This document shows positions 13,913-36,741 of a stretch of DNA of 64,000 nt, piece by piece. The stretch lies in assembly GCA_963733265.1 (NCBI GenBank), contig CAVTCF010000006.1, positions 57,269-121,268 of the forward strand, read 5' to 3'. Made by a program: the position numbers and the translations under genes. The notes beneath the pieces were generated by a model that saw only the letters and a list, made by a program, of their open reading frames with translations, was not told where the DNA came from and ran no database searches. The stretch is from an uncultured beta proteobacterium (GTDB taxonomy: Bacteria; Pseudomonadota; Gammaproteobacteria; Burkholderiales; Gallionellaceae). Within the stretch, counting starts at the first letter, position 1. Every line of letters starts with the position of its first letter.

Positions 13913-14216
13913 CTTTTTTAATAATTCCCCACAATCTTTATCGGAAAGTTGCCATGCCCACTTCGGGTTACCTGTTGCCAAAAGATGAATTTGAAATCGT
14001 ATGTCTGAAAGTTGTTCGACAACCGTCAGTCAATAGTAAGATAGACGAAAGACCATGTCCGGCCAACAACGGTCATAGGCGAGCGACTGCTTTGCTGCAA
14101 GGAATTGGGTAACTTTTAGACATTCCAAATCAACTTCAGCAACACAATTACTTTTCGGCGATTGTTATTCAGGAAGGGCAGGCATAAAATAGCTTACTAA
14201 TCACAAAAATACTTAT

Positions 14217-15719: not shown

Positions 15720-15740
15720 AAAAAGAAAAATCCGACAAGC

Positions 15741-15756
15741 TGGCACGTAGATTGCT
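15741..15756 (+). promoter_or_regulatory. sigma-54 (-24/-12) promoter
   Basis: TGGCACgtagaTTGCT matches TGGCAC-N5-TTGCW exactly. It lies about 20 nt after the activator stop and 40-100 nt before the possible hsdR starts. Confidence 0.7.
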
Positions 15757-15794
15757 GAGATGTGTGCATCCAGTAATTTTATGCAAGAAACATT

Positions 15795-18700
15795 ATGCAC
15801 GCCTCCCATACAATTTCGCTATCGCAGTCGGCCACCTCGGTCGAAGGGGGGCGTGTGCAATCTAAGAATTTCGAGTTTCTGCGTAATGCTCGCGCCGATC
15901 TGGCTGCCCTGGGTGGCTTTGCCGAGCATTATGCTTTCAACGACCCAGCGGGATCACTGGCTAAACTTCGATTATTTACCGAGCGAGTCGTCGATCTGGT
16001 CTATGACGCCTTCCGCCTACCTAAGCCATACCAACCAAACCTGAATGATCTTCTGAATGAGGATGCTTTTCGAGCTCGGGTTCCGACCGTAGTATTGACC
16101 AAGCTGCATGCACTGCGGATGCATGGCAACAAGGCCGTTCATGCCAACCAAGGCACAACGCCAACGGCACTGGCCATGGTACTGGAAGCGTTCGATATTG
16201 CCCGTTGGGTGTTCGTAACCTTTGACGGTGGGCTGGTTTCAGGCATTCATGCCTTCGTGCCACCCACGCCACCAGCCGATGCAAAGAAATTGGAGAAAGA
16301 TCGTCAGCGCCTGCTTGCCCAAATTGCTGAGCAGGAACAGCAGATGCAGGCAATACTGCAACAACTCGAACTGGCAAAAGCCCAACAAGTAACCGTTGAG
16401 CGGACTGAAGATGAATTGCAGCAGTTGGTTGCCAATGGTAGTGCTGCCGCAGATCAACTCGCTTTTGACGAGGCAACTACCCGACAGCGGCTGATCGACG
16501 CCATGCTCGTTTCCGTTGGATGGAAAGTCGGGCAAGCTGGCGCATCAACTGACGAAGTTGGCCAGGAGATTGAAATTCCGCAACCGCAGAACAAGACCGG
16601 CATCGGCTATGCCGATTATGTCCTGTGGGACGAAAACGACAAGCCTCTGGGCGTAGTTGAAGTCAAGCGTACCTCCAAGGATGCGGATGTCGGACGCACC
16701 CAAGCCGAGCTTTACGCTGATGGCCTTGAACAAAAATATGGCCAACGCCCGGTCATTTTTTATACCAACGGTTTTGACATCTACATTTGGGACGACGCCC
16801 AGAAGCAGACGCCACGCCGTCTGTTCGGCTTTTACTCAAAAGAAAGCCTGAAATACCTGGTCTTCCAGCGCCACCACAAACTGTCGCTCGACACGCTCAC
16901 TCCGAAATCAGAAATAGCGGGCCGGATGTATCAGATCGAAACCCTCAAACGCATTTGCGAGCGATTCAGCCTTGGCTATCGCAAATCGCTTGTCGTGCTG
17001 GCTACCGGTACCGGCAAGACCCGTGTCGCTGTTTCGCTGTGTGAGCTGTTGTCGCGTGCCAGATGGGCTAAGCGCATCCTCTTTCTGTGCGACCGGCGCG
17101 AACTGCGCAAGCAGGCGGATGATGTTTTCAAGGAATTCCTGCCCGGCGAGCCGCGCATCCACATCAACTCAAAAACCGCTGGCGACGTGACCAACCGTAT
17201 CTATCTCGCCACCTATCCGGCGATGATGCAGTGCTATGAAATGTTCGATGTCGGCTATTTCGACCTGATCATTGCCGACGAATCGCACCGCAGTATTTAC
17301 AACCGCTACCGTGATCTGTTTGTCTATTTCGATGCGCTCGAAGTGGGCCTTACCGCCACGCCCGTTCAGTTTATTTCCCGCAACACCTTCAAACTGTTTT
17401 CCTGCGAGAACGACGACCCCACTTCGTATTTCGGCTATCAGGAAGCCATCAGCCATGTACCGCCCTACCTTGTGCCCTTCGAGGTCTATACACATACCAC
17501 CGAGTTTCTGCGGCGGGGAATCGAGTACAAGAAACTTTCCAAGGAGCAGCAGGAGCAACTGGAAAATGACGAGGCCGATGCACAGTCCATCGACTACGAC
17601 GATACCGATATGGATCGGGTCGTGTTCAATAAGGACACCAATCGCGCCATCTTGCGTAACTTGATGGAGAATGGTCTCCGCGATGCAAGTGGTTCCCACC
17701 CCGGCAAAAGCATTATTTTCGCCCGCAATCACAACCATGCAGTATTTCTGGCGGGGATATTCGATGAGATGTATCCCCAATATGGTGGGGAGTTCTGCCG
17801 AGTAATTGATAACTACGATGTCCGTGCCGAGCAGTTGATAGACGATTTCAAAGACCCAAAGCATACGCTCACCGTTGCCATCTCTGTTGATATGCTGGAT
17901 ACCGGCATCGATGTGCCCGAAGTTGTTAATCTGGTGTTCGCGAAGCCGGTAAAATCCTATGTCAAATTCTGGCAAATGATCGGACGGGGAACTCGGCTAT
18001 GCGAAAATCTGAATGGGCCGGGTCAGGACAAAACCAAGTTCCACATTTTTGACCACTGGGGCAACTTCGCCTATTTCGAAGAGAGTTACCGCGAAGCCAA
18101 TCCTGCGATCAGCAAATCGCTGCTGCAAAAGCTTTTTGAGACCCGCCTACAATTGGCTGATACCGCGCTTGCAGTTGCGAAAGCTGATGCCTTCGACCTG
18201 GCCATCAAGCTGCTTCAGGCCGACATCGCGGCACTACCGGAAACCACCATCGCAGTCCGCGAGAAGTGGCGCGAGGTGCGTGAAGTCCAACGTGCTGGAG
18301 TGTTACCGGCGTTGAGTGCCGCAACGCGTTCATCCCTGCTCAAGGACATTGCTCCTCTTATGCAGTGGCGTGATACACGAAACTGGGAAGCAGCCTACCA
18401 GCTTGACCTGCTGATTGGGCGGATGCAGAGCGAACTGCTGAAGAAATCAGCCGAGTTCAATAATCTGCGGGACGACCTCATCGGCCTCGTTGCGCAGCTA
18501 CCCATTAACGTCAATGTCGTTCGCGACAAACTGGCCACCATCGAAAAAGTACGCAGTGGTGATTTCTGGAAGCTGATCACTGATCAAACCGATGTGGCTG
18601 CACTTGAATCGTTAAGAGAGGAATTGCGCGGAATCATGCGGCATCGCGTGGATGGGCCTACCGTCGGCGGCAAACCGCGTGTTCTGGACATTACAGAAGA

Positions 18701-19244
18701 TGCCAGCAAGATCGAGTTCGGTCGCCATATGCCAAAACTTGAAGGGACTGAATTGGTGGCGTACCGGCAACGCGTCGAGCAGGTGCTCGCTGGCTTGTTC
18801 GACACCAACCCGACATTGCGAAAAATTCGTCGCAGCGAACCCGTTGCCGAGTCAGATCTCATGGCCTTGGTCAGCCTGGTGCTTACCCAACATCCTGACG
18901 TGAATCTAACCTGGCTGACCGAGTTTTACCCTGATACCGCTGGCGATCTGGCGACGGCAATCCGTACCATCGTCGGCTTGGAGCCTGAAGTTGTGGCCGA
19001 GCGCTTCGGCGAATTCTTCGCTCGGCATCCACAGCTTTCGGCCAAGCAGCAGCGCTTCATGGCATTGCTGCAAAACCACATCGCCAAGTTTGGCATCGTC
19101 ACTCTGGACAAGCTCTACGAGTCACCATTTACCCAAGTCAGCGAGGATGGCCCCGATGGCGTTTTTGATGATGCCGAGGTTGAAGAATTGATCGCAGTAA
19201 TTGATGGCTTCCACCCTGCCAGCAATCAACGTGTCAACCAATAA
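15795..19244 (+). CDS. hsdR: type I restriction endonuclease R subunit with N-terminal DUF4145 and coiled-coil extension and EcoEI-type C-terminal domain
   Basis: NFEFLRNARADL...LRLFTERVVDLVY (DUF4145-like). ..GYADYVLWDENDKPLGVVEVKR.. (HsdR_N nuclease). LATGTGKT, IIADESHRS and QMIGRGTR (SF2 helicase). The C-terminus ..LSAKQQRFMALLQNHIAKFG.. is EcoEI_R_C-like. An alternative GTG start at 15855 follows GAAGGGGGG. Confidence 0.85.
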   Translation: MHASHTISLSQSATSVEGGRVQSKNFEFLRNARADLAALGGFAEHYAFNDPAGSLAKLRLFTERVVDLVYDAFRLPKPYQPNLNDLLNEDAFRARVPTVVLTKLHALRMHGNKAVHANQGTTPTALAMVLEAFDIARWVFVTFDGGLVSGIHAFVPPTPPADAKKLEKDRQRLLAQIAEQEQQMQAILQQLELAKAQQVTVERTEDELQQLVANGSAAADQLAFDEATTRQRLIDAMLVSVGWKVGQAGASTDEVGQEIEIPQPQNKTGIGYADYVLWDENDKPLGVVEVKRTSKDADVGRTQAELYADGLEQKYGQRPVIFYTNGFDIYIWDDAQKQTPRRLFGFYSKESLKYLVFQRHHKLSLDTLTPKSEIAGRMYQIETLKRICERFSLGYRKSLVVLATGTGKTRVAVSLCELLSRARWAKRILFLCDRRELRKQADDVFKEFLPGEPRIHINSKTAGDVTNRIYLATYPAMMQCYEMFDVGYFDLIIADESHRSIYNRYRDLFVYFDALEVGLTATPVQFISRNTFKLFSCENDDPTSYFGYQEAISHVPPYLVPFEVYTHTTEFLRRGIEYKKLSKEQQEQLENDEADAQSIDYDDTDMDRVVFNKDTNRAILRNLMENGLRDASGSHPGKSIIFARNHNHAVFLAGIFDEMYPQYGGEFCRVIDNYDVRAEQLIDDFKDPKHTLTVAISVDMLDTGIDVPEVVNLVFAKPVKSYVKFWQMIGRGTRLCENLNGPGQDKTKFHIFDHWGNFAYFEESYREANPAISKSLLQKLFETRLQLADTALAVAKADAFDLAIKLLQADIAALPETTIAVREKWREVREVQRAGVLPALSAATRSSLLKDIAPLMQWRDTRNWEAAYQLDLLIGRMQSELLKKSAEFNNLRDDLIGLVAQLPINVNVVRDKLATIEKVRSGDFWKLITDQTDVAALESLREELRGIMRHRVDGPTVGGKPRVLDITEDASKIEFGRHMPKLEGTELVAYRQRVEQVLAGLFDTNPTLRKIRRSEPVAESDLMALVSLVLTQHPDVNLTWLTEFYPDTAGDLATAIRTIVGLEPEVVAERFGEFFARHPQLSAKQQRFMALLQNHIAKFGIVTLDKLYESPFTQVSEDGPDGVFDDAEVEELIAVIDGFHPASNQRVNQ

Positions 19245-19263
19245 TTAAGAACAGGAGAGATTC

Positions 19264-20907
19264 GTGGACAGCCAATTCCTTGCCCTAGTTACAGCCACCA
19301 TCGGCCTGGCCCTTGGCGTGCTGATTACCTGGCTACTGACCCGAGGCAGAATTACCGCCGCTGCCGAGCAGGGTAAAGCCGGGGTTGCGGTCGATCTTGC
19401 CATGGCAAATGAACGAGCGCGCTCCATTGAAGCGGAACGTGGGAAACTGAGTGAGGCGCACGAGCAACTGCAATCACAAGCAAATGGGTGGAAGAACGAA
19501 CTCAACCAAGCCCGTGATGAGCTTTCCAAGCTGAACGAGCGGGCCAGTCGAATTCCTGTGCTTGATGAAAAATTGGTTGGATTAGAAGGTGCATTGGCAG
19601 AAGCGAGCCAGCAGGCCGCCGTCTTGCGCGAAGCCTCCGGTCGCATCAATGCCGAGCTCAAGGCTGAGCGCGAGACCCTAACCTCACTACGCAGCGAATT
19701 CCAGGCGGAAAAGTTACAGCGCACACAGGCCGAGGCGCAGGTCAATAGTCTCACCACGGAAATGGCTGAACTGAACACCCGCCTTGATGCCGAACGCAGA
19801 CAGGCACAGGAAAAGCTCGCGCTGCTGCTGGAAGCCAAGGAAGCACTGTCCAATCAGTTCAAGAGTCTCGCCAACGACATTCTGGAAGAAAAATCCAAGC
19901 GTTTCATCGAACAGAACCAGACCAACATTGGCCAACTCATCAATCCGTTAAAGGATCGGATAATGGAGTTCAAAACCAAGGTTGAGGAAATTCACACCAA
20001 GGATACAGAGCAGCAGGCAACGCTCAAAGCCGAGCTGACTCAACTGAAAGACCTGAATCGCCAAATGACCGAAGAGGCACACGGTCTGGCAACGGCACTT
20101 AAGGGGCAAGCCAAGAAGCAAGGCAATTGGGGCGAGCTGGTTCTCGGCAATGTACTTGACCGCTCTGGCCTGCGCGAGGGTCAAGACTTCAAGCGCGAGG
20201 TCAGCTTCAACACCGAAGAAGGCCGCAAGCGTCCGGACGTCATAATCTACCTGCCTCAGTCGAAGCACTTGGTCATTGATGCCAAGGTCTCTTTGAATGC
20301 CTATACACGGTATGTAAATGCTGAGGACGATATCATTCGGCAGCAGGCATTACAGGAACATGTCAGCGCGGTTGCCAGCAGAATTCAGGAACTATCGAAC
20401 CGAGCCTATTTCGAGCTGCCTGGCCTCAATTCGCCTGAGATGGTCTTCATGTTTATCCCTATTGAATCTGCTTTTGTCGAGGCGCTGCGGGCTGACGAGA
20501 ATCTGTTCCAGAAAGCCATCGAGCAGAACGTGCTGGTAGCCACACCGACCACGCTGCTGACCAGCCTGAATATTGTGCGCCAGCTTTGGCGCTTTGAAGA
20601 GCAAAACGCTCATACCGCCGAACTCGCTGACCGAGCCGGAAAGGTATACAAAAAACTGGTCACCTTCCTTGGCAGTATGGAAACTGTGGGCAAACAGCTC
20701 GACAAGGCAAAAGAATCCTTCAACTCGGCCATGGGGCAACTCTACACCGGCAAGGGCAACCTGATTGGACAAGCCAAGGAATTTGAAAAGCTGGGCGTGT
20801 CTGTGCAGACCCCTTTACCCGAACATCTGGTGGCTAAATCGGCTCTGGAACTTGAACACCTGCCCGAGGTTACCGAAGGCAACGAACTGGAAACCAACGA
20901 ATTATGA
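19264..20907 (+). CDS. rmuC: RmuC-family DNA recombination/nuclease protein
   Basis: An N-terminal TM segment plus a long coiled coil, then ..[27 protein letters not shown]...[22 protein letters not shown].. (RmuC core). GTG start after AGGAGAG. Confidence 0.9.
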
Positions 20908-22415
20908 TCACCAACCAACTCAAAAACGACATCGACCGCCTGTGGCTGGAATTCCATACGGGCGGTATCACCAATCCGCTCACCGTCATCGAGCAGATTT
21001 CTTTCCTGATGTTCGCCCGTCTGCTGGATATCGAAGAAACCCGCTTCGAAAAAATGGCAGGCCGCACTGGAAAATCGCCGCACAAGAATTTCAGCCCCGA
21101 CCAGCAAAACCTGCGCTGGAAGAACTGGAGCGAATATGGCGGCGAGGAAATGCTGCGCCATGTGCGCGATCAGGTTTTCCCTCACCTGCGCGACCTGGGC
21201 GGCAAGAACACCACCTTCGGCGAATACATGAAGGATGCTACCTGCATGGTTTCCAAGGCGAGTCTGCTGGTGTCCGCCGTTACCCAGATCAACTTGTTAC
21301 CGCTCGGCAATAGCGACATCAAAGGCGACCTCTACGAATACATGTTGAGCAAGCTGAGCACGGCTGGCATCAACGGCCAGTTCCGCACCCCCCGCCACAT
21401 CATCAAGCTGATGGTCGAACTGCTCGACCCAAAGCCTACCGAAGTGGTGGGTGATCCGGCCTGTGGCACGGCGGGCTTTCTCGTCGGCATCATGGAATAT
21501 CTGTGCCGACAATACTCGTCGCCGGAACTGGTGGAAACCTTCGAGGATGGCAGCAAGAGTTATCCCGGCGACAGGCTGGAACCCTACCGTGAGCATATCC
21601 AGAACGCAATGTTCCACGGCTTCGATTTCGACGTGACCATGCTGCGCATCGCTGCCATGAACCTGATGCTTCACGGCGTCGAAAATCCGGATATCCATTA
21701 TCAGGATACCCTCTCCAAAAACTTTCCAGAGAAATTCAGGCTGCAAGCCGAAGGGGGATTCGACGTTATCGCTGCCAACCCACCCTTCAAGGGCACCCTG
21801 GACGAAGAGGATGTGCATCCATCGTTGCTGAAGAAGGCCAAGACCAGGAAGACCGAACTATTGTTCGTTGTCCTTATCCTGCGCATGCTCAAGAATGGCG
21901 GACGTTCGGCCACCATTGTTCCAGACGGGGTGATGTTCGGCTCCAGCAAGGCGCATGTGGCATTACGCCAGCATTTGATTGATGAAAACCAACTGGAAGC
22001 AGTGATCTCGCTGCCCTCTGGCGTATTCAAACCGTATGCTGGTGTCTCCACGGCCATCTTGATCTTCACCAAGGGCGGACGGACGGATGATGTCTTGTTT
22101 TACGATGTGCAAGCCGATGGTTTCTCCCTCGACGACAAGCGCCAAGAAATTCCCGAGAACGACCTGCCTGACGTGCTGATCCAGTTTCAACAACACCGTA
22201 CCGCCAGCGCCGACTTTCGTGACCGTACCGCCAAGGCGTTCACGGTACCTGTAGCTAACATTCGCAGTAATAAATATGACCTGTCGGTTAGCAGGTATAA
22301 GGAAACGGTACATAAGGAAGCTCAGTTCGACCCGCCCGCCGATATCCTTAGGCGGATGAAGAATTTGGAGGCTGGGATCATGACGTATATGGATGAGTTG
22401 GAGGCAATGCTTTGA
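20904..22415 (+). CDS. hsdM: type I restriction-modification N6-adenine DNA methyltransferase subunit
   Basis: [10 protein letters not shown] (motif I) and IAANPPFKG (motif IV), with an HsdM_N-like N-terminus. The start overlaps the rmuC stop (ATGA). Confidence 0.9.
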
Positions 22416-23587
22416 TGGATTTTACGTGCCGACCAATTGCTGAATGTGTTCGCAAGGTTAGCCAGATCGCACCCGCCAGCAATTCCAACGACCAGTTCCT
22501 ATACGTCGATCTCTCTTCCATTGATAAGGATGAAAAGCGGATTGTTACGGCTGCGGTACAACGGCTAAATTGGGAAGATGCACCCAGCCGGGCTAGGCAA
22601 CTCGTTCAGGCAGGGGACATTCTGGTATCTACCGTTCGCCCCAATTTGAATGGCGTGGCACAGATTGATGCAAATTACGACGGAGCTATCGCATCAACTG
22701 GTTTCTGTGTGCTGCGTACAAAACCAGATGTTATTGACTCGCGCTATTTGTTTCATTGGCTTTGCAGTCCAAAGTTTGTAGCTGAAATGGTGAAATTGGC
22801 TACAGGTGCGAGCTATCCGGCAGTTTCGGATCGAATCATTTACGAATCATTGATTCCGCTACCAAGGGACGTAAATGAACAGCGCCGCATCGCCACCATC
22901 CTCGATAAAGCCGATGCCATCCGTACAAAACGACGCGAAGTTCTCAGGTTCGCCGATGAATTCCTGCGTTCGGTTTTCCTCGATATGTTCGGTGACCTAT
23001 TTTTCGAGGCGAATAATGAATGGAAAAAGTTGAGTGACTGCACCGATTTTATTGACTACCGGGGCAAAACTCCCGAAAAGTCAGATAGCGGGGTACGCCT
23101 GATTACAGCGAAGAACGTACGTGACGGCGTCATCAATATTGAACCAGCTGAGTTTATTTCAGAGGCAACTTACTCATGGTGGATGAGTCGCGGCTATCCT
23201 CGGTCTGGTGATGTTTTATTCACGACAGAAGCCCCGCTTGGCAATATCGCTGTTCTGAATACGCAAGAGCCAGTTGCTATTGGACAAAGGCTTATTGCTA
23301 TCAGACCTCGCGAGATGCTGCGATGGGATTACCTAAGCTGGGCATTGCGCCAGCGTATCGTCCAAAGTGATATTTTGTCTCGTTCCACTGGATCAACTGT
23401 TAAGGGTATCCGTTCTGCTGAACTTGTGCAGGTACGAATTCCGATTCCAGGAAAGGTCGATCAATTGAAGTTCGAAAAAATCGTCGCTTCAATCAACCAT
23501 CAAAAATCGGGAATGCAAGTGTCTGCACAGCAAGGCGATCTTCTCTTTCAATCGCTACAGCATCAAGCATTCCAAGGGTATCTATAA
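22412..23587 (+). CDS. hsdS: type I restriction-modification specificity subunit
   Basis: Two target-recognition halves are separated by the conserved ..[30 protein letters not shown].. spacer. The most likely start is the ATG at 22415, overlapping the hsdM TGA by 1 nt. Confidence 0.85.
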
Positions 23588-23598
23588 GGATAAAAGCA

Positions 23599-26591: not shown

Positions 26592-29500
26592 TTGGGTGAA
26601 CGAGTGATGACCCCAGATAAATGGATCAAGGAGTTATTAAACAGCAAGAATCTTGAACGTCCTGATGGGCGGATGCTCTATGGCTATCGGTTAAGTAATG
26701 AAGAGTACAAATCATTACGCGAGATGCTGGCTTACACTGCGGATTTCGGAGAGCTGGACGAGGTATCAAGCCGAATTCGCGGATTTTCGGCATTGTTTGT
26801 CCTCTATGCTGCCGAATGGTGGCGGCGCGAATACCAAGGTGGGGCATGGCGGTGGACATCAATCATTAGCGCTTTTGGCGGTAATGCGAAGGAACTTGAT
26901 GCTGCAGCAAGAACTAGGTGTGTAATTAGCGGCTTCGCATTCTGGGGACATCGTCCAGATGGAGAGGGCAAGAAATTCTTTGGTGCAATCGTCGCACACG
27001 GTGGGCTACCGCTTAACCTCATTGGGCAAGGTGGCGGCAAGTTGGCTTCGATCATGGATTCCACGTTGCGCCTCGCAGCGCGTTACCACTGGGACAGTTT
27101 GCAAATCGTCAATGCAATTGAAGAGCGGGCTGAAGAGTTTCCGGCAGCAAGTTTGCGCTGCCCGGAAATCTACCAGTTAATTGCCAGCATGGTTGTTGCG
27201 GTGCTGGAGCTGAAGCAGGAATTCCGTCTTACGGGAATTGCAGATCCTGTGGCCGTTTTAAATACGCAGGAACCAAGCTGGCGCCTACGTTTCCCACTTT
27301 CCTTAGAGGACGCTGCTGCTCAAGCATTATTGTCAGGGTTAGTGAAAGAGGCTGCACAGCAGCTCATGTTTGCATCCTCCGTCATATTTTCTGTTGAGAG
27401 AATGTTGCGAAAAACTGCGGACGGCAAGTATGAATTGACCTCAGTGCTGGCATGTCCACAAACTTTGGCTGCCGACACACTGGCAGAATTGTTTGGCTTG
27501 AACGAATTGCCGCGCTACTTCTCGATTGATGTTCAGGTGGATGAACGCAAACCGTTTTGCGAAGGTCGCCAGATTCTGGGAGCGGATACAGCAACCGTGT
27601 CGCTTGCTGGCGGCAAATGTGTTTGGAATGGTGTTGATGCCTGTTCGGAGCATCTGCTCTATCTGCGCGGACAAAGCGGTGATCTACGGGAAAATCCGCT
27701 TCCGATTCCAGGTGGCGCTGAACTTTCTCAAGATGAGCCATGGATTTTCGTTTTGCGCGATGGGAAACTAAGGTGGGTTGGTGCGGGCAGTGCGCGCGTT
27801 CCAGAAGAGGAGGCGGTCGTTGCACTTCCTGGTGGGTGGGGAATTGAACCCGCGAACGCAGACTCAATAGCCGACATTGTCGGACATTGCCATTTGGGCG
27901 ATCAACAGATAGCGCTCTATTCTGTGCGCGGTGAAATGACGTTGAGAAGATGCGAACAGCATTATCGGATTCGCACCAAGCAGGCAACGAGCGCGTCCGA
28001 CACTTATGTGTGGGAAGGTCGCCGAATTGCTTACCCTTCCAGTCCACAGCCAGTGTTTATCGGAGTTCCGAAGCTTTTTCGCTATCCGCCTGAAGGTGAG
28101 CGTAGCCGCGTACCGACTGCAGAACTGCACTGGTTTGCGGCGGGAACGAACAGCCGATTTGAAGATGCAACAAACGCACATGGCCCGCTTGATGTCTACT
28201 TGGTGCGGGAGGGGGAGCGGCTGGCTCGCTTTCGTTTCGTAGTGCTGGACAGTTCAGCGCGTACAGACTTCTCATCTAGTACATCGGCAAGCGAAGGACA
28301 TATTCATCTGGAGGGTTGGGGCTGTTCGGACGTTTCGATTGACGATCAACCTGGACTTCATTGCAAAGTTGAACAGGCCGGACGTGGTGTAAAACTACTT
28401 CTACAGGGCGGCGATGTCCCACCTGAGTCAGTAAGCGTTGTCATGCGTTGGCAACGTTGCGCACAGGAGTTGCGAATAAAGCTGCCTTTCCCCAGTGCGG
28501 GCGGTCGGTTTTTCGATGCAAAGGAACAGCCATTGCGCGAGGGGGATGAAATCGCACTTCGCCATCTGACCGGTGCGCGTCTGCGTATTTTTGATCGCAA
28601 TCCACTGGCACCTAAGCGGTATGACGTGTCGCTGACGTTGGGGCAAGGGAAGCGGGAAATGCGTAGCGCCGATCTAAAAATTGAGCATCCAATTTCACTG
28701 TTACCCAACGGTTCGGCAGAGATCAGGCTGATTGACCTGCAAAAGGACATAGAGAAACTGATGAGTTTCTCGGACGAGTTGGATGCAACCGTGAATGTGG
28801 CGGTGCTTGTGAGTAGCAGGCCGACTACAGCAGTGCGAGTTTCGCGCTATGAGACTGTGTTTGAACGAGACTCTCTTGCTGTAAGTTTTCCTCCAAAAGC
28901 CATTGAGCGATTAGATATGGCATCTCTGGAGCAAATTATTGTCAAGGCAGCACCGTTAACCAGCCTGGGTGGAGCATGTATCCAATTGGAGCAAGAATAC
29001 TCAGAGGGTGTGCCTGTCGCATGTTGGCAAGCTGCCGGACTGAATGCCACTTATTCGCCGTGGCTGATTTTTCCGGATGACGCATCCAGCGTTTTTTTCA
29101 GGCCGACGATATGGGGTAGGTCAGTTGATTCTCCTGAGATGGACACAAATTCAGGTTGCCCGCTCGCACAGGCGATGGCTATCCGGGAAGCGGAAGTCCG
29201 GATGGAAACTATAGCGGCGATACTCGACGCAATGGCAACAGACTTCAACCACCCATCGTGGCAATTGATGGAATATTTGTTGGAAACATTCCATCACTTG
29301 CCGCTCAGCAGCTTGGATGTCTTCCGGTTGATTGGGGCGCAACCGACGGCTGCTGTTTCCCTGTTGCTGCGCAGCCAATTTTCAGAAGATCGGTTGTTTG
29401 AATTTGCCCGCCGACTGCGTGACGAATTGGGCTTGGTATGGGAACTTGCCTCTATTGATATATGGCGGAATGCTGCCAGTAAGTTATATCAATATTGGGT

Positions 29501-30125
29501 TGCAACGCTTGGGGAAGATGATGCAAAGGCCAGCTTTCCGATTATTCTTAAAGTCCGTCTGGATCGGTTAGCAGGTGAGCATCCGCCCCTGCAATTGATG
29601 CTGGATGTGCTATTGCTGGAATTGACCAACCATCCGAGTGATGCGCTTGTTGAGGTTCAGCGCGTTTCGCAGGGAGACCGCTTGGCATTTGCGTACCAGC
29701 TTTGGCGCGGCCATGATTCGCTGGCGCAAAATCTTCTGTTTCGTGGTCATGCAAATGATGCGGAATGGCCTGAACGACCACTGTTTGAAGCAGCCTTTAC
29801 AGGATTCCTCGAAGTCGTAGCTGATTCGGTGAAGAATAAATTGAATCCAGATATTGTTAAAAAGATGTTTTGGATGGATACGCCTAAAGATTTCAAGGTG
29901 TCGGTTGCAAATATCCCGGTGCTTTGCGCGCTTTGGGCTGTTACCGGCACCAGCCAGGAGTGGTGGAGAAAGCCGGAACGCAGGCTGGCGCTCCGCAAGA
30001 TCAAAGCATTTGACCCCATCTGGTTTGAGCAAGCGTTTGGTAAGGCTGTTGCAGCCTGTCTCGCGTTAGGTATCCTCGTGCCGGGAGAAATGAATGTTGG
30101 GTACACCAAAATAATGCCCACCTGA
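26592..30125 (+). CDS. large uncharacterised protein (about 1170 aa), DruH-like by size and position
   Basis: An uninterrupted ORF with no recognisable motif, immediately upstream of the DruE-like helicase. The likely start is the ATG at 26607. Confidence 0.6.
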   Translation: MGERVMTPDKWIKELLNSKNLERPDGRMLYGYRLSNEEYKSLREMLAYTADFGELDEVSSRIRGFSALFVLYAAEWWRREYQGGAWRWTSIISAFGGNAKELDAAARTRCVISGFAFWGHRPDGEGKKFFGAIVAHGGLPLNLIGQGGGKLASIMDSTLRLAARYHWDSLQIVNAIEERAEEFPAASLRCPEIYQLIASMVVAVLELKQEFRLTGIADPVAVLNTQEPSWRLRFPLSLEDAAAQALLSGLVKEAAQQLMFASSVIFSVERMLRKTADGKYELTSVLACPQTLAADTLAELFGLNELPRYFSIDVQVDERKPFCEGRQILGADTATVSLAGGKCVWNGVDACSEHLLYLRGQSGDLRENPLPIPGGAELSQDEPWIFVLRDGKLRWVGAGSARVPEEEAVVALPGGWGIEPANADSIADIVGHCHLGDQQIALYSVRGEMTLRRCEQHYRIRTKQATSASDTYVWEGRRIAYPSSPQPVFIGVPKLFRYPPEGERSRVPTAELHWFAAGTNSRFEDATNAHGPLDVYLVREGERLARFRFVVLDSSARTDFSSSTSASEGHIHLEGWGCSDVSIDDQPGLHCKVEQAGRGVKLLLQGGDVPPESVSVVMRWQRCAQELRIKLPFPSAGGRFFDAKEQPLREGDEIALRHLTGARLRIFDRNPLAPKRYDVSLTLGQGKREMRSADLKIEHPISLLPNGSAEIRLIDLQKDIEKLMSFSDELDATVNVAVLVSSRPTTAVRVSRYETVFERDSLAVSFPPKAIERLDMASLEQIIVKAAPLTSLGGACIQLEQEYSEGVPVACWQAAGLNATYSPWLIFPDDASSVFFRPTIWGRSVDSPEMDTNSGCPLAQAMAIREAEVRMETIAAILDAMATDFNHPSWQLMEYLLETFHHLPLSSLDVFRLIGAQPTAAVSLLLRSQFSEDRLFEFARRLRDELGLVWELASIDIWRNAASKLYQYWVATLGEDDAKASFPIILKVRLDRLAGEHPPLQLMLDVLLLELTNHPSDALVEVQRVSQGDRLAFAYQLWRGHDSLAQNLLFRGHANDAEWPERPLFEAAFTGFLEVVADSVKNKLNPDIVKKMFWMDTPKDFKVSVANIPVLCALWAVTGTSQEWWRKPERRLALRKIKAFDPIWFEQAFGKAVAACLALGILVPGEMNVGYTKIMPT

Positions 30126-30154
30126 ATGACAATCAATCAATAAATTGGTGTTCG

Positions 30155-33100
30155 ATGAAAAAACAATATTTCTCTTCCCTACTACCTGAGCTTTCGACTC
30201 GTGCAGCGCGTGCGACTGTGAGCCGTTTGGGGTTTTCAAGCCCTGAGTTAAGAGCGTATCTGAGCGAACTTTTTTCGCGAGGGTTTGGCGAACCGGGAAG
30301 TTATCTCGGCGATCCGGTTTTCGAGGCAACTTTTGGCTGGGAACCGGCTGACCAGACGATGACTTCCTTGTCACCTGCGTTGTTGTCTCCCAGTCTAATC
30401 GGGGCAATGGACAAGCCTATGGGGAGCGAGGCAAGCGACTACCGTTTTCCGCGCGACATCGCTCCTTATAAACACCAACTCGAAGCATGGGAATGGCTGA
30501 CACGCGAACAGCCGCAGTCGGTTGTTGTAACCAGCGGGACCGGATCTGGAAAAACCGAGTGCTTTATGGTGCCGATACTCAACTCACTGGTACGCGAGCA
30601 TGAGGTGAGCAGAGCTAAACTGGTTGGCGTTCGCGCGCTGTTTTTGTATCCGCTAAACGCACTGATTCAAAGTCAGCGCGAGCGGTTGCATGCATGGACA
30701 GGAGCATTTGGCGATGCTGTCCGGTTTTGCTTGTATAACGGACTGACGCCACAAAAGGAGCCTCAGCATGTACGGGACAAAACCCCCAATCAGGTGATCG
30801 ACCGAGAGGCACTGAGAGCCGCGCCGCCACCCATGCTGGTAACCAATGCCACTATGCTGGAGTACATGTTGGTGCGAGCACAGGATGCGCCCATTCTCGA
30901 TGCATCGCAAGGCAAGCTTCAGTGGATTGTGCTGGATGAAGCACATACCTACATTGGTTCGCAGGCTGCGGAACTGGCCTTGCTGTTGCGTAGGGTGCTG
31001 CACGCCTTTGGCGTTTCGAGCAATCAGGTTCGTTTTGTCGCAACCTCCGCCACCATAGGCGATCCTCACGGCGAGGCGGGGCAACAATTGCGCGCCTTTC
31101 TAGCTGGCTTGGCTGGTGTGGATGAAGACCGTGTACATGTCGTTACCGGGCAGCGGAAAATTCCTGACCTGTTGGCGGGTAGCGCGCAATATCAGAATGC
31201 CCCTCTCGAAGAGCTGGAAGATATATTGCTGGAGGGCGGCGAACGGTACAACGCCTTATGCGCGAATCGCACTGCGCGCCGAATTCGTCAGATGTTCGTC
31301 CCCGGTGCAGAAGGAAAACCCGCCAACTCTTTCTCTGATATTGCACCAGCCATTCTTGGGAATGATTGGCGGCAGCAGCCAAACGCAACTGAAATTACGC
31401 TACGCTGGCTCGACTTGCTTACCAGTGCAAAATCAGCCGGAAAAAATGAGCAGCCGTTCCTGCCGTTGCGTCTCCATGCATTCCACAACGTGCTGGCTGG
31501 ATTGTGGGCGTGCTGCGATTCTACCTGTGCGTGTAAAAGTGGCACGGCACTTGATTCCCCGGAATGGCATTATGGCAAGATTTACACGGAAGAACGCCGA
31601 CACTGTGAATGCGGCTCGCCAGTATTTGAACTGCGCTCATGCAATGACTGCAACACCACTTTTTTGTGGGCGCAGCGTATCGGCCCCGACCGTGATGGAA
31701 AGTACCACCTGTGGCAAGTTCAAGAGGATTCCGATGACGAATTTTCGCTAGATGTTGAAGTGCCCGAGGACGATCTGGGAGGGGACGAACAGGATGGAAC
31801 AGAAATCTCCGCAATTGCATCCCAGAAAAAACCAGTGCTAATTGCAAATGGCTACGCGATTGGCACAGGAGAAGCTTTGATTGAGCGTATATCTTTGGTA
31901 TTCGATCCGCCAGAAATTTCGGATGCCATCAGGCTGCGCTTGAAGGATGAGCAGGATGGCATGATGGTTTGTCCGGATTGTGGCGGACATCATGGCAATG
32001 GGAAGCTGATGTTCCGCAAAGCCATTCTGGGCGCACCTTTCTTGTTGAGTGAAATTATTCCAACTCTGCTGGAGTATTGCCCTGACATTGAAGGCAAAGG
32101 TATCAGTCCGCTAGAACGGCCTTTACGCGGGCGGCGCATGATTACCTTTACCGACAGCCGGCAGGGTACGGCACGTATTGCCGCAAAACTGCAACAGGAC
32201 TCCGAACGCAACCGAGTACGCGGCCTGATCTACCAGCACGTAGCGCAGAAAACTCAAGCGGGTGGCAATTTGGAAGTGGCGGCACTTCAGCAGGAAATAG
32301 CTACCTTGAAAATGGTAAATAATTCTGCTTTGTCCAAGTTGATTTTGGAAAAGGAAAATAAACTCGCAGCACACCAGCCGAAGCCCATCACTTTTAATAA
32401 TGCTGCGGACTATTTGAGCAGCGTCGAGGCGGACACCAAAGACTGGATACATCAGTATTATTCCGATCTTGATCCCGCAGAATTTAGTGGGGCGACGGGC
32501 AAGGAAAAACTTGCGCGCATACTTGTCATGCGCGAGTTCGCGCGCAGGCCGAAGCGCGCAAACAGCTTGGAAACAATGGGGTTGGTGGCGGTTCGTTATC
32601 CCAAGCTGGAATCGGTTACGCAACTGCCAAAGTTTCCAGATGGAACGGCAAGACTGACCTTGCCTGAGTGGCAAGACTTCCTGAAAATTGCGCTAGATTT
32701 TCATGTTCGGGAGAACACATTCGTTAACCTCCCTGATAGCTGGCGAAAATGGGGTGGTCAGCGACTGTCCGGAAAAAAATTACTCCCGCCAGAATCGAAA
32801 GAGAAGCAATCCAACCAAATCAAGAAATGGCCGCAATGTAATCCTGCCGGGATGCAAAACCGTTTGGTGAGGTTATTGGGCTACGTGTTGAAACTCGATC
32901 CGGCCTCTGCCCACGGTCGGGATGCTCTTGATGGAATCTTGAGATGCGCGTGGGATGATTTGACCCGCGTGGGTCTATTGCAAGTCGCAAGCACTGGACG
33001 CTATCTCGCTTTGGAGGATATGGCGTTTGCCCCTATCAGCAAGGGATGGGTATGCCCGGTAACACGGCGCGTACTGGACGTAACCTTGAAAGGTGTGACG

Positions 33101-36100
33101 CCCTATCTTCCCAGAACGGAGCCTACGGATAAAGTTGCGATCTGCAGACCGATTGAATTGCCGAAGTGCTTCTTACTGGATAAGGATTTCCCCTCAGCCG
33201 ACGAACGGCTAAACGGGATACGTCAATGGCTGACGGATGACGCTACTGTTGTATCACTCAGAGGAGAAGGTCTGTGGTCTGACCTGAGTGACAGGATTGT
33301 CGAGGGCGGTGGTTATTTCCGTGCGGTTGAGCACTCGGCGCAGCAGCCCGGCAGTCGCTTGCAACAATATGAAAATGATTTCAAATCCGGGCGCATCAAT
33401 CTGCTGAGTTGCTCGACGACCATGGAAATGGGTGTTGATATTGGCGGTATCACCGTTGTAGCAATGAACAACGTGCCGCCTCATCCAGCAAATTATCTGC
33501 AACGCGCGGGGCGTGCCGGGCGCCGCTCGGAAACACGCTCTGTCGCACTGACTGTCTGCAAAAACAATCCCCACGATCAATATGTTTTTGCGAACACCCG
33601 CTGGGCATTTGAAACTCAGTTGCCCGCTCCCAGCATAAAACTTGAAAGTGCGATTATCGTGCAACGGCACATCAACTCGATGCTGTTGGCGAATTTCTTG
33701 CGCACGCAACTGGCCAACAATGGCGATCTGGTCAAGCTCAATATGGAATGGTGGATGCTGCCAAAAGATGAGGCGCGCTCAGATCGATTCATTGCTTGGG
33801 CAAAGTGCTTTGATGAAAAACAAAGTGGTAACTTGACGACAGGGCTGCGCTCGCTGCTGCGTTATACCTGCTTCGATGGCATCGTGTCGCTGCATGGCTT
33901 GATTGCGGAATCCGCAAAGATGCTTGTCGCATTTCGTACCAAGTGGTTCGATGAGTTTGATGCCGTAGAGTTGCAGATCAACCAGTTTCAGGGGGCATCC
34001 AAGGAGAAAGACCCCGCCTACAAAGCGTTGCAAATACAGAAAAGACGGTTGACTGACGAGTATCTGTTGAGGGAACTGGCTGCGGGTGGCTTCCTGCCTG
34101 GATATGGTTTTCCGACAGATATTTCTTCCTTTGAAACACTGACACTTGATGAGATTAAGCGAAACGAAACACGCAAGAAAGACGAGCGCGTAGACAACCT
34201 GATGCGCCGCAGGGAGCTGCCGAGCCGCGATACGGTAACGGCGTTGAGAGAATATGCGCCGGGTGCAGAGGTGGTGATCGATGGTCTGGTGTATCGCTCC
34301 GCCGGAATTACGCTCAATTGGCACGTCCCTGCTTCAGTGCAGGCGGTCAGCGAGATACAAAATATCCGAGAAGCATGGCGTTGCCGCTCCTGTGGCTCCA
34401 GCGGCACGACGGGTATGGCAAATCAGCTTACTCAGTGCCTGGATTGCGGTGCTGCGTTGCCACCTGTTCCAGATTGCCGTTTTACCTATCTGGAACCAGC
34501 AGGATTTTCCGTTGATCTCTACGAGTCGCCGCATAACGATGTATCGACTCAGACCTTTGTCCCCGTTGAAGCTCCGTGGATCAATGCCAATGGTGAATGG
34601 CTACCCATGACGAACCCCCAGCTGGGTGCTTACAGGGCAAGTCCGATTGGCACGGTGTTTAACCATTCGGCTGGTACTAATGGTCTGGGTTATGCCATTT
34701 GTCTGGCTTGTGGTCGGGCAGAACCCATGATCAGCGCGTCAGATGATGGGGAGGTTGAGCAGGGCGGTGTCGCATTGCCAAAAATCTTTCAAGCCCCTCA
34801 TCGTCGGCTGCGGGGTGCGCAAGGAGGTGAAACGGCGTTGTGCGAAGGCAGTAGCTTTTCCATCAAGCCCGGCATGCGACTTGGTCATGAAGCGACAACA
34901 GATGTGCTTGAACTCATGCTGTATGACTTGGATGGACGCCCTTTGTCAGATCGGCGTGTGGCGTTTTCACTTGCGGTGGCGATACGCAGTGCTATTGCCG
35001 CACTGTTGGGCGTCGAGGTTTCTGAGTTAGGTTGTGATACCAAAGAAATTCGGATGAATAGAGAGATTGGACAGGCGATAGTGCTGTTTGACCGTAATGC
35101 ATCCGGCTATTGCTCTTCGGTTTCCGACCGGTTGCGAGATGTTTTGTTCAAGGCAAAAGGAATTTTGAGCTGCTCGGCGAATTGTGAAGGGGCTTGTCAG
35201 CACTGTCTGCTGCATTTCGATACTCGCTTCCGCATGGATGATCTGAACCGCCATGCTGCGTTGGAGTTCTTGACGGATCGCTGGCTGGACGAATTTCAGC
35301 TTCGGAATGAGGACGCCCAATTTGGACGTGGTACTCATGCGGAATTTCAAACACTGCCAGAGGCGATCACTCGGGAACTGGTGCGTCCGGGCGTAGAAGA
35401 GCTGCGGTTGTATCTTGCGGGCAACCCTTCCGAATGGGACATCGCAGCGTCACCGTTGCGGGGGTGGGTGCAGAAGTGGGCATCCTCCGCGAGTGCCATT
35501 AAAGTTGTACTTTCTCCCGATACCGTAAATGCCATGTCGCAGGCGGATCGTTTCGTACTGTCTATTTTGTCGAACCTTAACGGAGTTTCTGTCTGGACTG
35601 GAGAGGCACCGCCTTGTCAGGCTGGTGGACAGACAGTCGCGGAAATAATAGCTACTGACCGCGATCCGTGGGCATGGGCATATCGTTCTAGCAACGCTGC
35701 TTGCCCCAATGCGCAATGGGCGATGGGCACGGACTTGCTAGTGCGTGGTCAGCCTCAAACAAATGGGAATCTATTGCAGCAAATTTCAATAGTTTCAAGC
35801 GCACCTGCGGATATGAAGGGGAAAGTTCATCGGTTTGAAATTAGAAGTGAACTCGATGGTGTATCCGAGGGATTTGGACGGCGGTTGCTGGCAAAGCTGG
35901 AGGATGACCTTGGAGCCGATCTTATCAGAGGAAAAGGGGAAATAATTCGTGTTACCTACCATGACCGCTATTTGAACGCGCCCCTTCCAGCCGCGCTACT
36001 TCTTGATTTTATTTCAGCGCTGAAAATGGCTCATAAAGACCGTTGGTCTGTTCAGTCAATCGAGTTGGTGGTTGCGCCTTTCCAAGAAGACAAAGGCGGC

Positions 36101-36445
36101 TTTAACCGCCCCATGTATTTGTACCACAATTGGCCGAACGTATTAGATCGCGCCTCAGCTATCAGTGCTGCATTTGACTATTGCGGTATGGACACCGACC
36201 TACGCAGCATGGATAAGCGTGACGCGCTGCATGCCCGTCTTTTGGAAATCGAAACCGATGACGGTCATCTGACAAAAATATGGCTGGATCAAGGATTCTC
36301 ATATTGGCAAGCACAGTCGCCATATCGGCAGAATTTGCGATTCCCATTTGCCGGTGAACCAAACGAACAGGGGCAGACGATTGCAAAGTCTAGTGTGGAC
36401 TTGGCAGGGCAAGCTTTTCCAACGTATTTGTTTGTTGAGCGATGA
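30155..36445 (+). CDS. druE: giant DEAH-box SF2 helicase with MrfA/DUF1998 zinc-binding domain (DruE-like, Druantia)
   Basis: TSGTGSGKTECF (motif I), VLDEAHTY (motif II), QRAGRAGRR (motif VI). Several Cys4 ribbons are present, plus CSANCEGACQHCLLHFDTRF (DUF1998-type cluster). At 2096 aa the size is typical of DruE. Confidence 0.7.
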   Translation: MKKQYFSSLLPELSTRAARATVSRLGFSSPELRAYLSELFSRGFGEPGSYLGDPVFEATFGWEPADQTMTSLSPALLSPSLIGAMDKPMGSEASDYRFPRDIAPYKHQLEAWEWLTREQPQSVVVTSGTGSGKTECFMVPILNSLVREHEVSRAKLVGVRALFLYPLNALIQSQRERLHAWTGAFGDAVRFCLYNGLTPQKEPQHVRDKTPNQVIDREALRAAPPPMLVTNATMLEYMLVRAQDAPILDASQGKLQWIVLDEAHTYIGSQAAELALLLRRVLHAFGVSSNQVRFVATSATIGDPHGEAGQQLRAFLAGLAGVDEDRVHVVTGQRKIPDLLAGSAQYQNAPLEELEDILLEGGERYNALCANRTARRIRQMFVPGAEGKPANSFSDIAPAILGNDWRQQPNATEITLRWLDLLTSAKSAGKNEQPFLPLRLHAFHNVLAGLWACCDSTCACKSGTALDSPEWHYGKIYTEERRHCECGSPVFELRSCNDCNTTFLWAQRIGPDRDGKYHLWQVQEDSDDEFSLDVEVPEDDLGGDEQDGTEISAIASQKKPVLIANGYAIGTGEALIERISLVFDPPEISDAIRLRLKDEQDGMMVCPDCGGHHGNGKLMFRKAILGAPFLLSEIIPTLLEYCPDIEGKGISPLERPLRGRRMITFTDSRQGTARIAAKLQQDSERNRVRGLIYQHVAQKTQAGGNLEVAALQQEIATLKMVNNSALSKLILEKENKLAAHQPKPITFNNAADYLSSVEADTKDWIHQYYSDLDPAEFSGATGKEKLARILVMREFARRPKRANSLETMGLVAVRYPKLESVTQLPKFPDGTARLTLPEWQDFLKIALDFHVRENTFVNLPDSWRKWGGQRLSGKKLLPPESKEKQSNQIKKWPQCNPAGMQNRLVRLLGYVLKLDPASAHGRDALDGILRCAWDDLTRVGLLQVASTGRYLALEDMAFAPISKGWVCPVTRRVLDVTLKGVTPYLPRTEPTDKVAICRPIELPKCFLLDKDFPSADERLNGIRQWLTDDATVVSLRGEGLWSDLSDRIVEGGGYFRAVEHSAQQPGSRLQQYENDFKSGRINLLSCSTTMEMGVDIGGITVVAMNNVPPHPANYLQRAGRAGRRSETRSVALTVCKNNPHDQYVFANTRWAFETQLPAPSIKLESAIIVQRHINSMLLANFLRTQLANNGDLVKLNMEWWMLPKDEARSDRFIAWAKCFDEKQSGNLTTGLRSLLRYTCFDGIVSLHGLIAESAKMLVAFRTKWFDEFDAVELQINQFQGASKEKDPAYKALQIQKRRLTDEYLLRELAAGGFLPGYGFPTDISSFETLTLDEIKRNETRKKDERVDNLMRRRELPSRDTVTALREYAPGAEVVIDGLVYRSAGITLNWHVPASVQAVSEIQNIREAWRCRSCGSSGTTGMANQLTQCLDCGAALPPVPDCRFTYLEPAGFSVDLYESPHNDVSTQTFVPVEAPWINANGEWLPMTNPQLGAYRASPIGTVFNHSAGTNGLGYAICLACGRAEPMISASDDGEVEQGGVALPKIFQAPHRRLRGAQGGETALCEGSSFSIKPGMRLGHEATTDVLELMLYDLDGRPLSDRRVAFSLAVAIRSAIAALLGVEVSELGCDTKEIRMNREIGQAIVLFDRNASGYCSSVSDRLRDVLFKAKGILSCSANCEGACQHCLLHFDTRFRMDDLNRHAALEFLTDRWLDEFQLRNEDAQFGRGTHAEFQTLPEAITRELVRPGVEELRLYLAGNPSEWDIAASPLRGWVQKWASSASAIKVVLSPDTVNAMSQADRFVLSILSNLNGVSVWTGEAPPCQAGGQTVAEIIATDRDPWAWAYRSSNAACPNAQWAMGTDLLVRGQPQTNGNLLQQISIVSSAPADMKGKVHRFEIRSELDGVSEGFGRRLLAKLEDDLGADLIRGKGEIIRVTYHDRYLNAPLPAALLLDFISALKMAHKDRWSVQSIELVVAPFQEDKGGFNRPMYLYHNWPNVLDRASAISAAFDYCGMDTDLRSMDKRDALHARLLEIETDDGHLTKIWLDQGFSYWQAQSPYRQNLRFPFAGEPNEQGQTIAKSSVDLAGQAFPTYLFVER

Positions 36446-36741
36446 CTGTTTAGAACTTGTTAGAAGGCTAAACTGAAGAGGCGTCTCCGAACACAATGTA
36501 CTTCTGAAAGAGGTTGTTTGCTTTGTATGGCGAGTGTCTCTTATCAGGAGACGAATTCAGATGATCGTATGTCGCTTCAGGGTTACGTGGCGACGAAGAG
36601 CAAAAAGAGTAAGATACGTCCGGTGTAAAATACAGAGCGGACATGGCTGTTAGTAAAGGCAATCAGGCAAATGTCGGCCAACTAGGGTCATTCGACTATG
36701 GCTGCTATGCGGCGCTCTATTTGAGACTAGATTAGCGTGCT

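Follow-up and report, generated by a model that had tools for sequence, protein, structure and literature searches.

We describe a densely packed array of defence genes in the genome of an uncultured betaproteobacterium, on a stretch of 64,000 nucleotides (nt) of contig CAVTCF010000006.1 that we refer to throughout as the window. An open reading frame (ORF) listing gives eight long ORFs between positions 15795 and 36445, all on the + strand (Table 1), and profile searches against Pfam, PADLOC and NCBIfam support the identities that an earlier reading of the sequence alone (the original prediction) had given to them, namely a restriction-modification (RM) system of type I, an RmuC protein, an ATPase module and Druantia genes. 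That reading counted nine genes in the array; we find eight, and the number becomes nine only if one includes the gene for an RtcR-like regulator at 14217-15719, which lies outside this interval. The regulator gene is followed by a sigma-54 promoter, and the two together form what we call the head of the array.

Table 1. Features of the array, its head and its right-hand end, with positions in the window (aa, amino acids)
Feature	Position	Strand	Length, family or evidence
Sigma-70-like promoter candidate of the regulator gene, TTGTTA-17-TAAAAT	14162..14190	+	consensus scan, weak evidence
RtcR-like enhancer-binding protein, CARF - sigma-54 AAA+ - Fis-type HTH	14217..15719	+	500 aa; Pfam, NCBIfam, AF2 fold
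Sigma-54 promoter, -24/-12 element TGGCAC-N5-TTGC, TGGCACgtagaTTGC (TGGCACGTAGATTGC in place)	15741..15755	+	motif scan
HsdR, type I restriction subunit	15795..19244	+	1149 aa, EcoAI/EcoEI-like; PADLOC, Pfam, NCBIfam
RmuC-family nuclease	19264..20907	+	547 aa; Pfam RmuC
HsdM, type I methyltransferase	20904..22415	+	PADLOC MTase_I, Pfam
HsdS, specificity subunit, two target-recognition domains	22415..23587 (ORF list: 22412/22415)	+	PADLOC
NsnB-like ABC (OLD-type) ATPase, C-terminal DUF3696 tail	23599..25716	+	705 aa; Pfam, PADLOC
ATPase partner, PLD-superfamily C-terminal domain	25716..26591	+	291 aa; AF2 model, fold search
DruH (YjiT family), Druantia type III	26607..30125	+	PADLOC, NCBIfam
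DruE (YjiV-type DEAD/DEAH helicase, MZB/DUF1998 zinc domain)	30155..36445	+	2096 aa; PADLOC, Pfam
Insertion sequence (IS)-type integrase (rve) gene, right-hand array end	36745..37692	+	Pfam rve, rve_3

The type I RM system is complete, with HsdR (PADLOC REase_I, 2.6e-298; Pfam ResIII and EcoEI_R_C; NCBIfam PRK11448, EcoAI family), HsdM (PADLOC MTase_I, 3.6e-175; Pfam N6_Mtase and HsdM_N) and HsdS (PADLOC Specificity_I, 2.5e-61) all present, and it is of type IB. Embedded between hsdR and hsdM is a gene whose product matches Pfam RmuC (8.4e-98) and has a hydrophobic N-terminal, transmembrane (TM) helix, with residues 30-220 (~190 residues) matching coiled-coil models. At the other end of the array DruH (PADLOC DruH3, 3e-128; NCBIfam YjiT_fam, 1.6e-187, over the cut-off) and DruE (PADLOC DruE3, E 0, full-length coverage; Pfam DEAD, Helicase_C and MZB) are adjacent and matched over their full length, so that what had been called a Druantia-like pair is a full Druantia type III system. 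We also note an N-terminal extension of ~230 aa in HsdR (15795-16490) that matches the PADLOC candidate PDC-M16A (1.1e-33) and, weakly, DUF4145; this extension is missing from the 763-aa HsdR of relatives that stand under the same regulator.

The junctions between these genes are short. hsdR ends with TAA at 19244 and rmuC begins with GTG at 19264, with AGGAGAG in between; rmuC and hsdM overlap as ATGA at 20904-20907, hsdM and hsdS as TGATG at 22413-22417, and the genes for the ATPase and its partner as TGATG at 25714-25718; hsdS stops at 23587 and the ATPase ATG lies at 23599; and druH stops at 30125, ahead of the druE ATG at 30155. All of these had been read from the sequence before and prove exact on re-reading. 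At the remaining junction the partner gene does stop at 26591 and the next frame does open at 26592, with TTG, but the likely start of DruH is the ATG at 26607, and an independent gene call on contig L017 (handles of this form denote the related contigs and loci that we fetched) begins DruH there as well. Across the eight genes the gaps range from -4 to +29 nt. We judged the counts of terminator-like and sigma-70-like sites against shuffled sequence, and terminator-like sites are at chance level in the array (26 versus 22.6 +/- 5.0 expected, and 8 versus 5.8 +/- 2.5 in a second scan); the + strand hairpins are short (-3 to -9 kcal/mol) and lie within coding sequence, and none of the + strand terminator candidates of the array has a strong stem abutting a U-tract. 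The claim that the array holds no internal terminator therefore stands, none that is credible having been found. With a shared strand, short or overlapping junctions and no internal terminator, the eight genes have the layout of a single operon. No terminator was found between druE and the following integrase gene either, and the independent contig L017 breaks between these two genes, at 36591. It is possible that the native 3' end of the operon has been displaced or replaced by the IS-type integrase.

Abutting genes of such different kinds might be an artefact of assembly, a chimeric join of separate loci, and nothing speaks for this except that one independent assembly, made from the short reads of sample ERR11748453, has a break within rmuC, where L002 ends at 19899 and L017 begins at 19872. 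Independent contigs of two other samples nevertheless cover every junction between them: L002 matches 13387-19899 and L017 matches 19872-36591, both at 100 %, and L001, from a different sample, matches 13978-21502 at 97.8 % and bridges the break at 19872-19899. We consider a chimeric join so improbable that we treat it as excluded.

The regulator at the head of the array has the domains of a sigma-54 activator. It matches Pfam Sigma54_activat (1.7e-70), AAA_lid_14, HTH_8 and, in its N-terminal part, RtcR (4.7e-6, over the gathering score), and its Walker A (GESGTGK), GSFTGA loop, Walker B (IFLDEI) and R-finger are intact. The best NCBIfam match is also RtcR, at 360.5 bits over residues 52-488, which falls short of the equivalog cut-off of 650. 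A sequence search against the PDB matched the AAA+ domain alone, and the CARF domain was found by fold only: for residues 1-183 in an AlphaFold (AF2) model (predicted local distance difference test (pLDDT) 80.5), the top 46 PDB fold matches are all CARF proteins, among them Csm6, Card1, Can2, Cad1 and Cam1 (best E 1.7e-6). The sigma-70-like promoter candidate of the regulator gene lies where the conserved module has its left edge and where DNA homology to L003, L009 and L015 begins (14145-14161). Directly upstream is an HD-domain (HD_5/HD-GYP-like) gene (13250-13912; GC 44 %), which relatives do not keep alongside the module; in L001 an HTH gene takes its place.

The original prediction had put the array behind a sigma-54 promoter, and we locate a canonical -24/-12 element 22 nt past the regulator stop codon and 40 nt ahead of the hsdR ATG. 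The exact element occurs once in the window. It is also found 8-40 nt past the regulator stop codon in 22/22 related loci (every fetched locus in which the 3' end of such a regulator is present), with flanking bases that have diverged, and across all fetched loci there are 31 exact matches in 1.86 Mb against ~1.8 expected. Two one-mismatch sigma-54-like sites within the array, at 19222-19236 on the - strand and at 31540-31554 (without the -12 GC), were rejected as candidates, their number being that expected by chance.

Relatives of the regulator are numerous (67-95 % identity), and the co-directional defence cargo that follows members of this family (68-95 % identity) varies. A long HsdR with or without RmuC, then HsdM, HsdS, the ATPase and its partner, stands behind the head in L001/2, L009/10, L014-16, L026 and L028. 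In L003-L008 and L011-L013 a regulator and promoter 74-94 % identical to those of the window head a type I RM system with a short HsdR (763 aa, 26 % identical to that of the window), in which HsdMS is followed by a 1,274-1,325-aa fusion of N6_Mtase and Methylase_S and then by a STAND/NACHT-type NTPase. In Accumulibacter (L019/20/27) an RM system is absent, and the head is followed by the ATPase, the partner, and DruH-like and DruE-like genes. The regulators of L051-L054 (68-69 % identical) head VWA, PP2C and Ser/Thr kinase genes and then a UPF1-like helicase and an AAA_5 protein, with an exact sigma-54 promoter 8-28 nt past the regulator stop; these operons look like the TerY-P and CoCoNuT arrangement described in the parts of Bell et al. 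(PMC11090510) that we cite here. The RtcR-type head is thus not tied to CoCoNuTs and is common to at least four cargo types. There is also a version with no such head: about 20 Nitrotoga/Nitrosomonadales genomes (L021, L022, L031-L050) carry RmuC, HsdM, a half-size HsdS, the ATPase and the partner as a stand-alone five-gene block, homologous to 19264-26591 of the window, with neither HsdR nor a sigma-54 regulator within 10 kb.

Comparison of individual loci shows where the cargo has been exchanged. Against L009, whose regulator is 82 % identical, homology runs from 14161 to 19211, skips rmuC and resumes at 20900, and rmuC is a clean insertion or deletion relative to L009. Homology ceases across the first target-recognition domain of hsdS (22415-22877) and then runs to exactly 26591, the partner stop codon, beyond which L009 has small ORFs and a SMODS (CBASS-type) gene, not Druantia III. 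Elsewhere the partner is followed by an HNH nuclease (L026), by Schlafen/AlbA_2, RmrA/CapP-like and TOTE primase-helicase genes (L023), by YhcG/PDC-S02 and then a DruH-like gene (L028), or by nothing (Azonexus L018 and Nitrotoga). Protein identities are discordant by module, HsdR being 87 % and the ATPase 63 % identical in L015, and 84 % and 91 %, respectively, in L009. The hand counts of G+C on single 60-nt lines in the original prediction are exact (43.3 % at 23101, 66.7 % at 24841 and 55.0 % at 27001), and the mosaic composition that they had suggested is present; per gene it is modest, with only the ATPase gene (GC 60.5 %; GC at third codon positions (GC3) 72 %; the highest in the array) and hsdS (GC 47.7 %, GC3 45.5 %; the lowest) standing out, and the remaining six genes at 52-54.5 %. 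Homology breakpoints exactly at gene boundaries, discordant identities, a GC3 range of 45.5-72 % and cargo that differs among relatives together bear out the proposal that the array was built from separately acquired modules. The exchange takes place at gene boundaries and keeps the tight operon layout intact. We also note that a gene of the uracil-DNA-glycosylase superfamily is inserted in the RM system of Azonexus L018 (4525-5199, between rmuC and hsdM) and of Accumulibacter aalborgensis L028 (4541-5218, between hsdR and hsdM).

An array made of separate modules might owe its layout to chance, independent systems having piled up in a hotspot and come to face the same direction by luck, with the regulator controlling something else. 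In the window, which is mosaic and rich in IS, there are transposases at 9025, 10802, 36745, 49996 and 62048 and an integrase at 4263, and GC3 differs among the modules, all of which would fit a hotspot. However, regulator, promoter and first cargo gene are linked in 22/22 loci, in many genomic contexts, the start/stop overlaps (ATGA once, TGATG twice) indicate translational coupling, and the junction architecture of the window is retained in relatives at 63-91 % protein identity. We therefore disfavour chance adjacency and regard it as very improbable.

We think it fairly probable, instead, that the array forms the cargo of a defence superoperon that is inducible by a signal, under the RtcR-like activator and the sigma-54 promoter. 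The regulator gene, from a promoter of its own, would encode an RtcR-like activator (CARF sensor, sigma-54 AAA+ motor and HTH) whose CARF domain would sense an alarm ligand and whose AAA+ domain would remodel the sigma-54 holoenzyme at 15741-15755 and so fire the promoter; RNA polymerase would then run through eight abutting or overlapping genes with no terminator between them. For a sigma-54 promoter to open, such an activator must hydrolyse ATP, and expression of the array would depend on sigma-54 in vivo. Among the products, the RmuC/ShdA-like nuclease would be membrane-anchored and is inserted in the type IB RM system, and the DUF3696 tail of the ATPase probably holds and gates the PLD-fold nuclease partner. 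The regulator and promoter would constitute a portable head, behind which cargo is swapped in cassettes at gene boundaries.

Several observations weigh against this proposal. A single transcript of 20.6 kb, from 15.77 to 36.4 kb and with read-through to druE, is an inference that draws only on spacing and on missing terminators. With hsdR first behind an activator-dependent promoter, the chromosome would be unmethylated until induction, which would be hazardous; basal firing or an internal promoter for hsdMS would likely be expected, and none was found. The Nitrotoga block, which runs from rmuC to the partner gene with neither regulator nor hsdR, implies that these genes can be expressed from another promoter. 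Neither rtcA nor rtcB lies near the regulator, whose neighbours are the HD-domain gene and hsdR, and this, with the RtcR score below the equivalog cut-off, means that the ligand of the regulator may differ from that of RtcR. Finally, we found no inverted repeats that could serve as activator sites, either upstream of the regulator or in the 300 nt before the promoter.

These points bring into view a composite unit with several promoters, in which the sigma-54 promoter supplies an inducible boost, perhaps mainly of hsdR, while hidden internal sigma-70 promoters, for example in the 3' ends of hsdR or rmuC and of the partner gene, would give constitutive and independent expression of hsdMS, of the ATPase pair and of Druantia. 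It is established that type I RM systems need the methylase before the nuclease, and in the Nitrotoga loci the genes from rmuC to the partner are accompanied neither by the regulator and its promoter nor by hsdR. The partner gene of some relatives is followed by a gap of 90-110 nt, which leaves room for a promoter, whereas in the window no gap exceeds 29 nt and there is no room for intergenic promoters. Weak sigma-70-like matches do occur at 18799-18826 and 19216-19245; however, the second is unconserved in relatives, where only the ribosome-binding region is kept, and was rejected as an internal promoter for rmuC-hsdMS. Sigma-70-like sites are fewer in the array than in shuffled sequence (6 versus 13.8 +/- 3.6, and 0 versus 5.3 +/- 1.9 in a second scan), and consensus scans found no credible sigma-70 promoter inside it. 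The cited parts of Bell et al. (PMC11090510) also expect internal promoters that are independent of RtcR. We regard a composite unit as possible but doubtful.

The layout proposed here, a single sigma-54-driven superoperon, is less of a novelty than the original prediction supposed when it called the array unusual. Bell et al. 2024 (Bell, Sahakyan, Makarova, Wolf and Koonin, eLife; PMC11090510; what we say of this paper refers to the parts cited here) describe RtcR homologues that frequently precede Type II/III-A CoCoNuTs, in loci where nearly all genes are co-directional and closely spaced and in which 'superoperons' can exceed 40 kb; their content includes type I RM, ShdA/RmuC and Druantia III. 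The window shares with these superoperons a regulator of CARF, sigma-54 AAA+ and HTH domains at the 5' end, several closely spaced, co-directional defence systems downstream of it, a type I RM system with an embedded gene of TM helix, coiled coil and RmuC domain, and Druantia type III. It differs from them in having no CoCoNuT at its 3' end (no UPF1-like CnuH, McrB-like GTPase or McrC), in its hosts, which are Rhodocyclaceae-type Betaproteobacteria here and Pseudomonas there, and in the addition of the NsnB-like ATPase and its PLD-fold partner; and, whereas the cited parts of that paper report no sigma-54 promoter, one is located here and shown to be conserved. No AAA_11/12 or McrB-type AAA_5 domain was found in the array proteins, and what follows druE is an IS gene and then minus-strand genes. 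The window is thus an RtcR-headed superoperon of the described kind, in a new composition without a CoCoNuT.

The regulator shares its domain architecture and its best family match with RtcR of the RtcR-RtcBA regulon of E. coli and Salmonella, whose target promoter is likewise sigma-54 dependent. It differs in its score (360 against a cut-off of 650), in having no rtcA or rtcB nearby, in having defence genes as targets and in being co-directional with its target, whereas E. coli rtcR is divergent from rtcBA. A ligand-sensing transcription factor at the 5' end of mixed defence cargo is familiar from the WYL-domain regulators BrxR and CapW; in contrast to these, the regulator of the window is an ATP-driven sigma-54 activator (default OFF) and not a repressor. 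Extra effector genes nested within hsd operons are also known, namely PrrC and RloA/B, but those embedded in the window are others. To our knowledge, little is understood of how defence islands are switched on beyond the WYL-type repressors, and we found no experiments on such control in a literature search that paired sigma-54 or RpoN with phage defence, hsdR or Druantia.

The immigration control region of E. coli K-12 (hsdRMS-mcrBC with yjiT/yjiV) also has a type I RM system beside Druantia III-type genes, and DruH and DruE of the window carry YjiT and YjiV family signatures. The two differ in that a DNA search with 14000-36500 against 5,426 complete E. coli genomes gave zero matches, so that the locus is not enterobacterial, and we know of no sigma-54 control of the E. 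coli region.

The RmuC protein of the array resembles ShdA of the Shield system (PMC10270631), which likewise combines an N-terminal TM helix, a coiled coil and an RmuC domain and is encoded within another defence operon. Shield, however, was defined in Pseudomonas with partners ShdB-E, none of which is in the window, and the rmuC gene of the window stands between hsdR and hsdM; the likeness is one of architecture. PADLOC gave no ShdA match for this protein, and there is no M15-peptidase-like neighbour. An RmuC gene of this kind within the type I RM system of RtcR-headed superoperons is described in the cited parts of Bell et al. (PMC11090510). We note that relatives differ most in the 5', coiled-coil region of rmuC (RmuC lengths 545-626 aa), and the assembly break in that region hints at strain-level variation.

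The ATPase and its partner form a pair of their own. The ATPase (Pfam AAA_21, AAA_15 and DUF3696; Walker A GANSAGKS) has NsnB as its best PADLOC match (1.6e-45) and also matches PDC-M55A and HEC-03B. When species-representative genomes were scanned with an alignment of the partner, 28 loci were recovered, and the partner is directly 3' of the ATPase in 28/28. It has no Pfam, PADLOC or NCBIfam match; its AF2 model (pLDDT 94.7) has an alpha/beta domain at its N terminus and a PLD-superfamily (MIT_C/Nuc-like) domain at its C terminus, the ~160 C-terminal residues matching Nuc, NucT, Zucchini, PLD3/4, the nuclease domain of SauUSI and MIT_C of MITD1 in a PDB fold search (E ~1e-4, TM-score ~0.5 on target). 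At E <= 1e-3, a profile search with the partner family recovers 2,508 representative clusters, almost all of them 280-330 aa, and D162, H235 and R237 are invariant across 39 family members at 26-44 % identity. Pfam and PADLOC scans of these 39 distant relatives gave no family (2/39 touch BrxL), and the family profile gave only noise against PDB sequences. We regard the partner as the probable nuclease effector. Assignment of the pair to PARIS, Gabija or Septu was rejected, as the match to those models is confined to the P-loop ends and the partner is neither AriB nor Toprim nor HNH, and so was the idea that the pair is strictly part of Druantia; Druantia-type genes follow it in four lineages, but most loci carry the pair without Druantia.

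The closest known counterpart is Menshen (NsnABC), in which NsnB, an ABC ATPase, has a DUF3696 tail with which it is predicted to clamp the effector NsnC at its N-terminal domain; NsnC has an inactive-PIN N-terminal domain and a C-terminal effector domain, one effector type of which, PB-PLD1, is MIT_C-like with an acidic residue and an H-D-R motif, and Menshen is often linked to type I RM (PMC12065111). The ATPase of the window has the DUF3696 tail and scores best against NsnB, and it is followed by an overlapping two-domain partner with a PLD/MIT_C-like C terminus in which an acidic residue and H-x-R recall PB-PLD1. There is no NsnA, however, and no array protein has a DUF262 or ParB domain in Pfam, PADLOC or NCBIfam; the partner matches no NsnC model, and its likeness to NsnC is that of the C-terminal domain; and the ATPase of the window has an additional N-terminal extension of ~130 aa (residues 1-133, 23599-23997). 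By analogy we read the pair as a putative Menshen-like, ATPase-gated PLD nuclease, in which contact between ATPase and partner would be expected. Its sensing partner would be something other than NsnA, possibly the RM complex. The N-terminal extension is present in 8/8 distinct long-HsdR loci and missing in every locus without HsdR (Nitrotoga, and Accumulibacter L019/20/27), and this co-occurrence suggests that the ATPase and HsdR are physically linked.

The five-gene Nitrotoga block, for its part, may be an HsdR-independent, methylation-linked restriction system. We tentatively put these observations together as follows, and hold the combination to be possible rather than probable: the CARF activator and sigma-54 promoter would be a portable, default-OFF alarm switch placed before interchangeable cargo, type I RM included, and RmuC, HsdM, HsdS, the ATPase and the partner would form a self-sufficient, HsdR-independent, methylation-guided restriction system that in Rhodocyclaceae has become coupled to HsdR through the extra N-terminal domain of the ATPase. 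If true, restriction capacity, beyond abortive-infection effectors, would be induced by an RNA-damage or nucleotide signal. The locus offers a clean and testable case, with one sensor-activator, one perfectly conserved sigma-54 promoter with a predictable start and ~20 kb of cargo, and it opens to direct test both the inducible control of a defence island and a Menshen-like module that lacks NsnA; the ATPase-PLD pair and its HsdR-less Nitrotoga version are candidates for defence assays. It also poses a paradox, in that the promoter before a type I RM system is default-OFF and the first gene behind it is that of the nuclease; basal firing of this promoter, a hidden promoter for hsdMS or restriction alleviation might each resolve it.

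Lastly, we note the surroundings of the array. Scans for tRNA/tmRNA and against Rfam over the whole window gave no tRNA integration site and no riboswitch. IS and other mobile genes bracket the array, comprising a DDE transposase (DUF772/DDE_Tnp_1), two IS110-family transposases, the rve integrase, a Mu-like transposase and an Integrase_1 protein, at 9025-10410, 10802-11764, 36745-37692, 49996-51420 and 62048-63604, with Integrase_1 at 4263-5288 on the - strand. Near this integrase, at the left of the window, are genes for an NYN-domain protein (2836-3588, - strand) and an AAA_14/DUF4143 ATPase (6403-7851, + strand), which may be further defence or mobile-element genes. Downstream of the array, the minus strand encodes a 1,562-aa RHS-repeat protein (DUF6531 and RHS repeats; 38329-43017), a 1,048-aa transglutaminase-core protein (43008-46154) and a leucine-rich repeat (LRR) protein (47024-48283), which together probably constitute a polymorphic-toxin locus.

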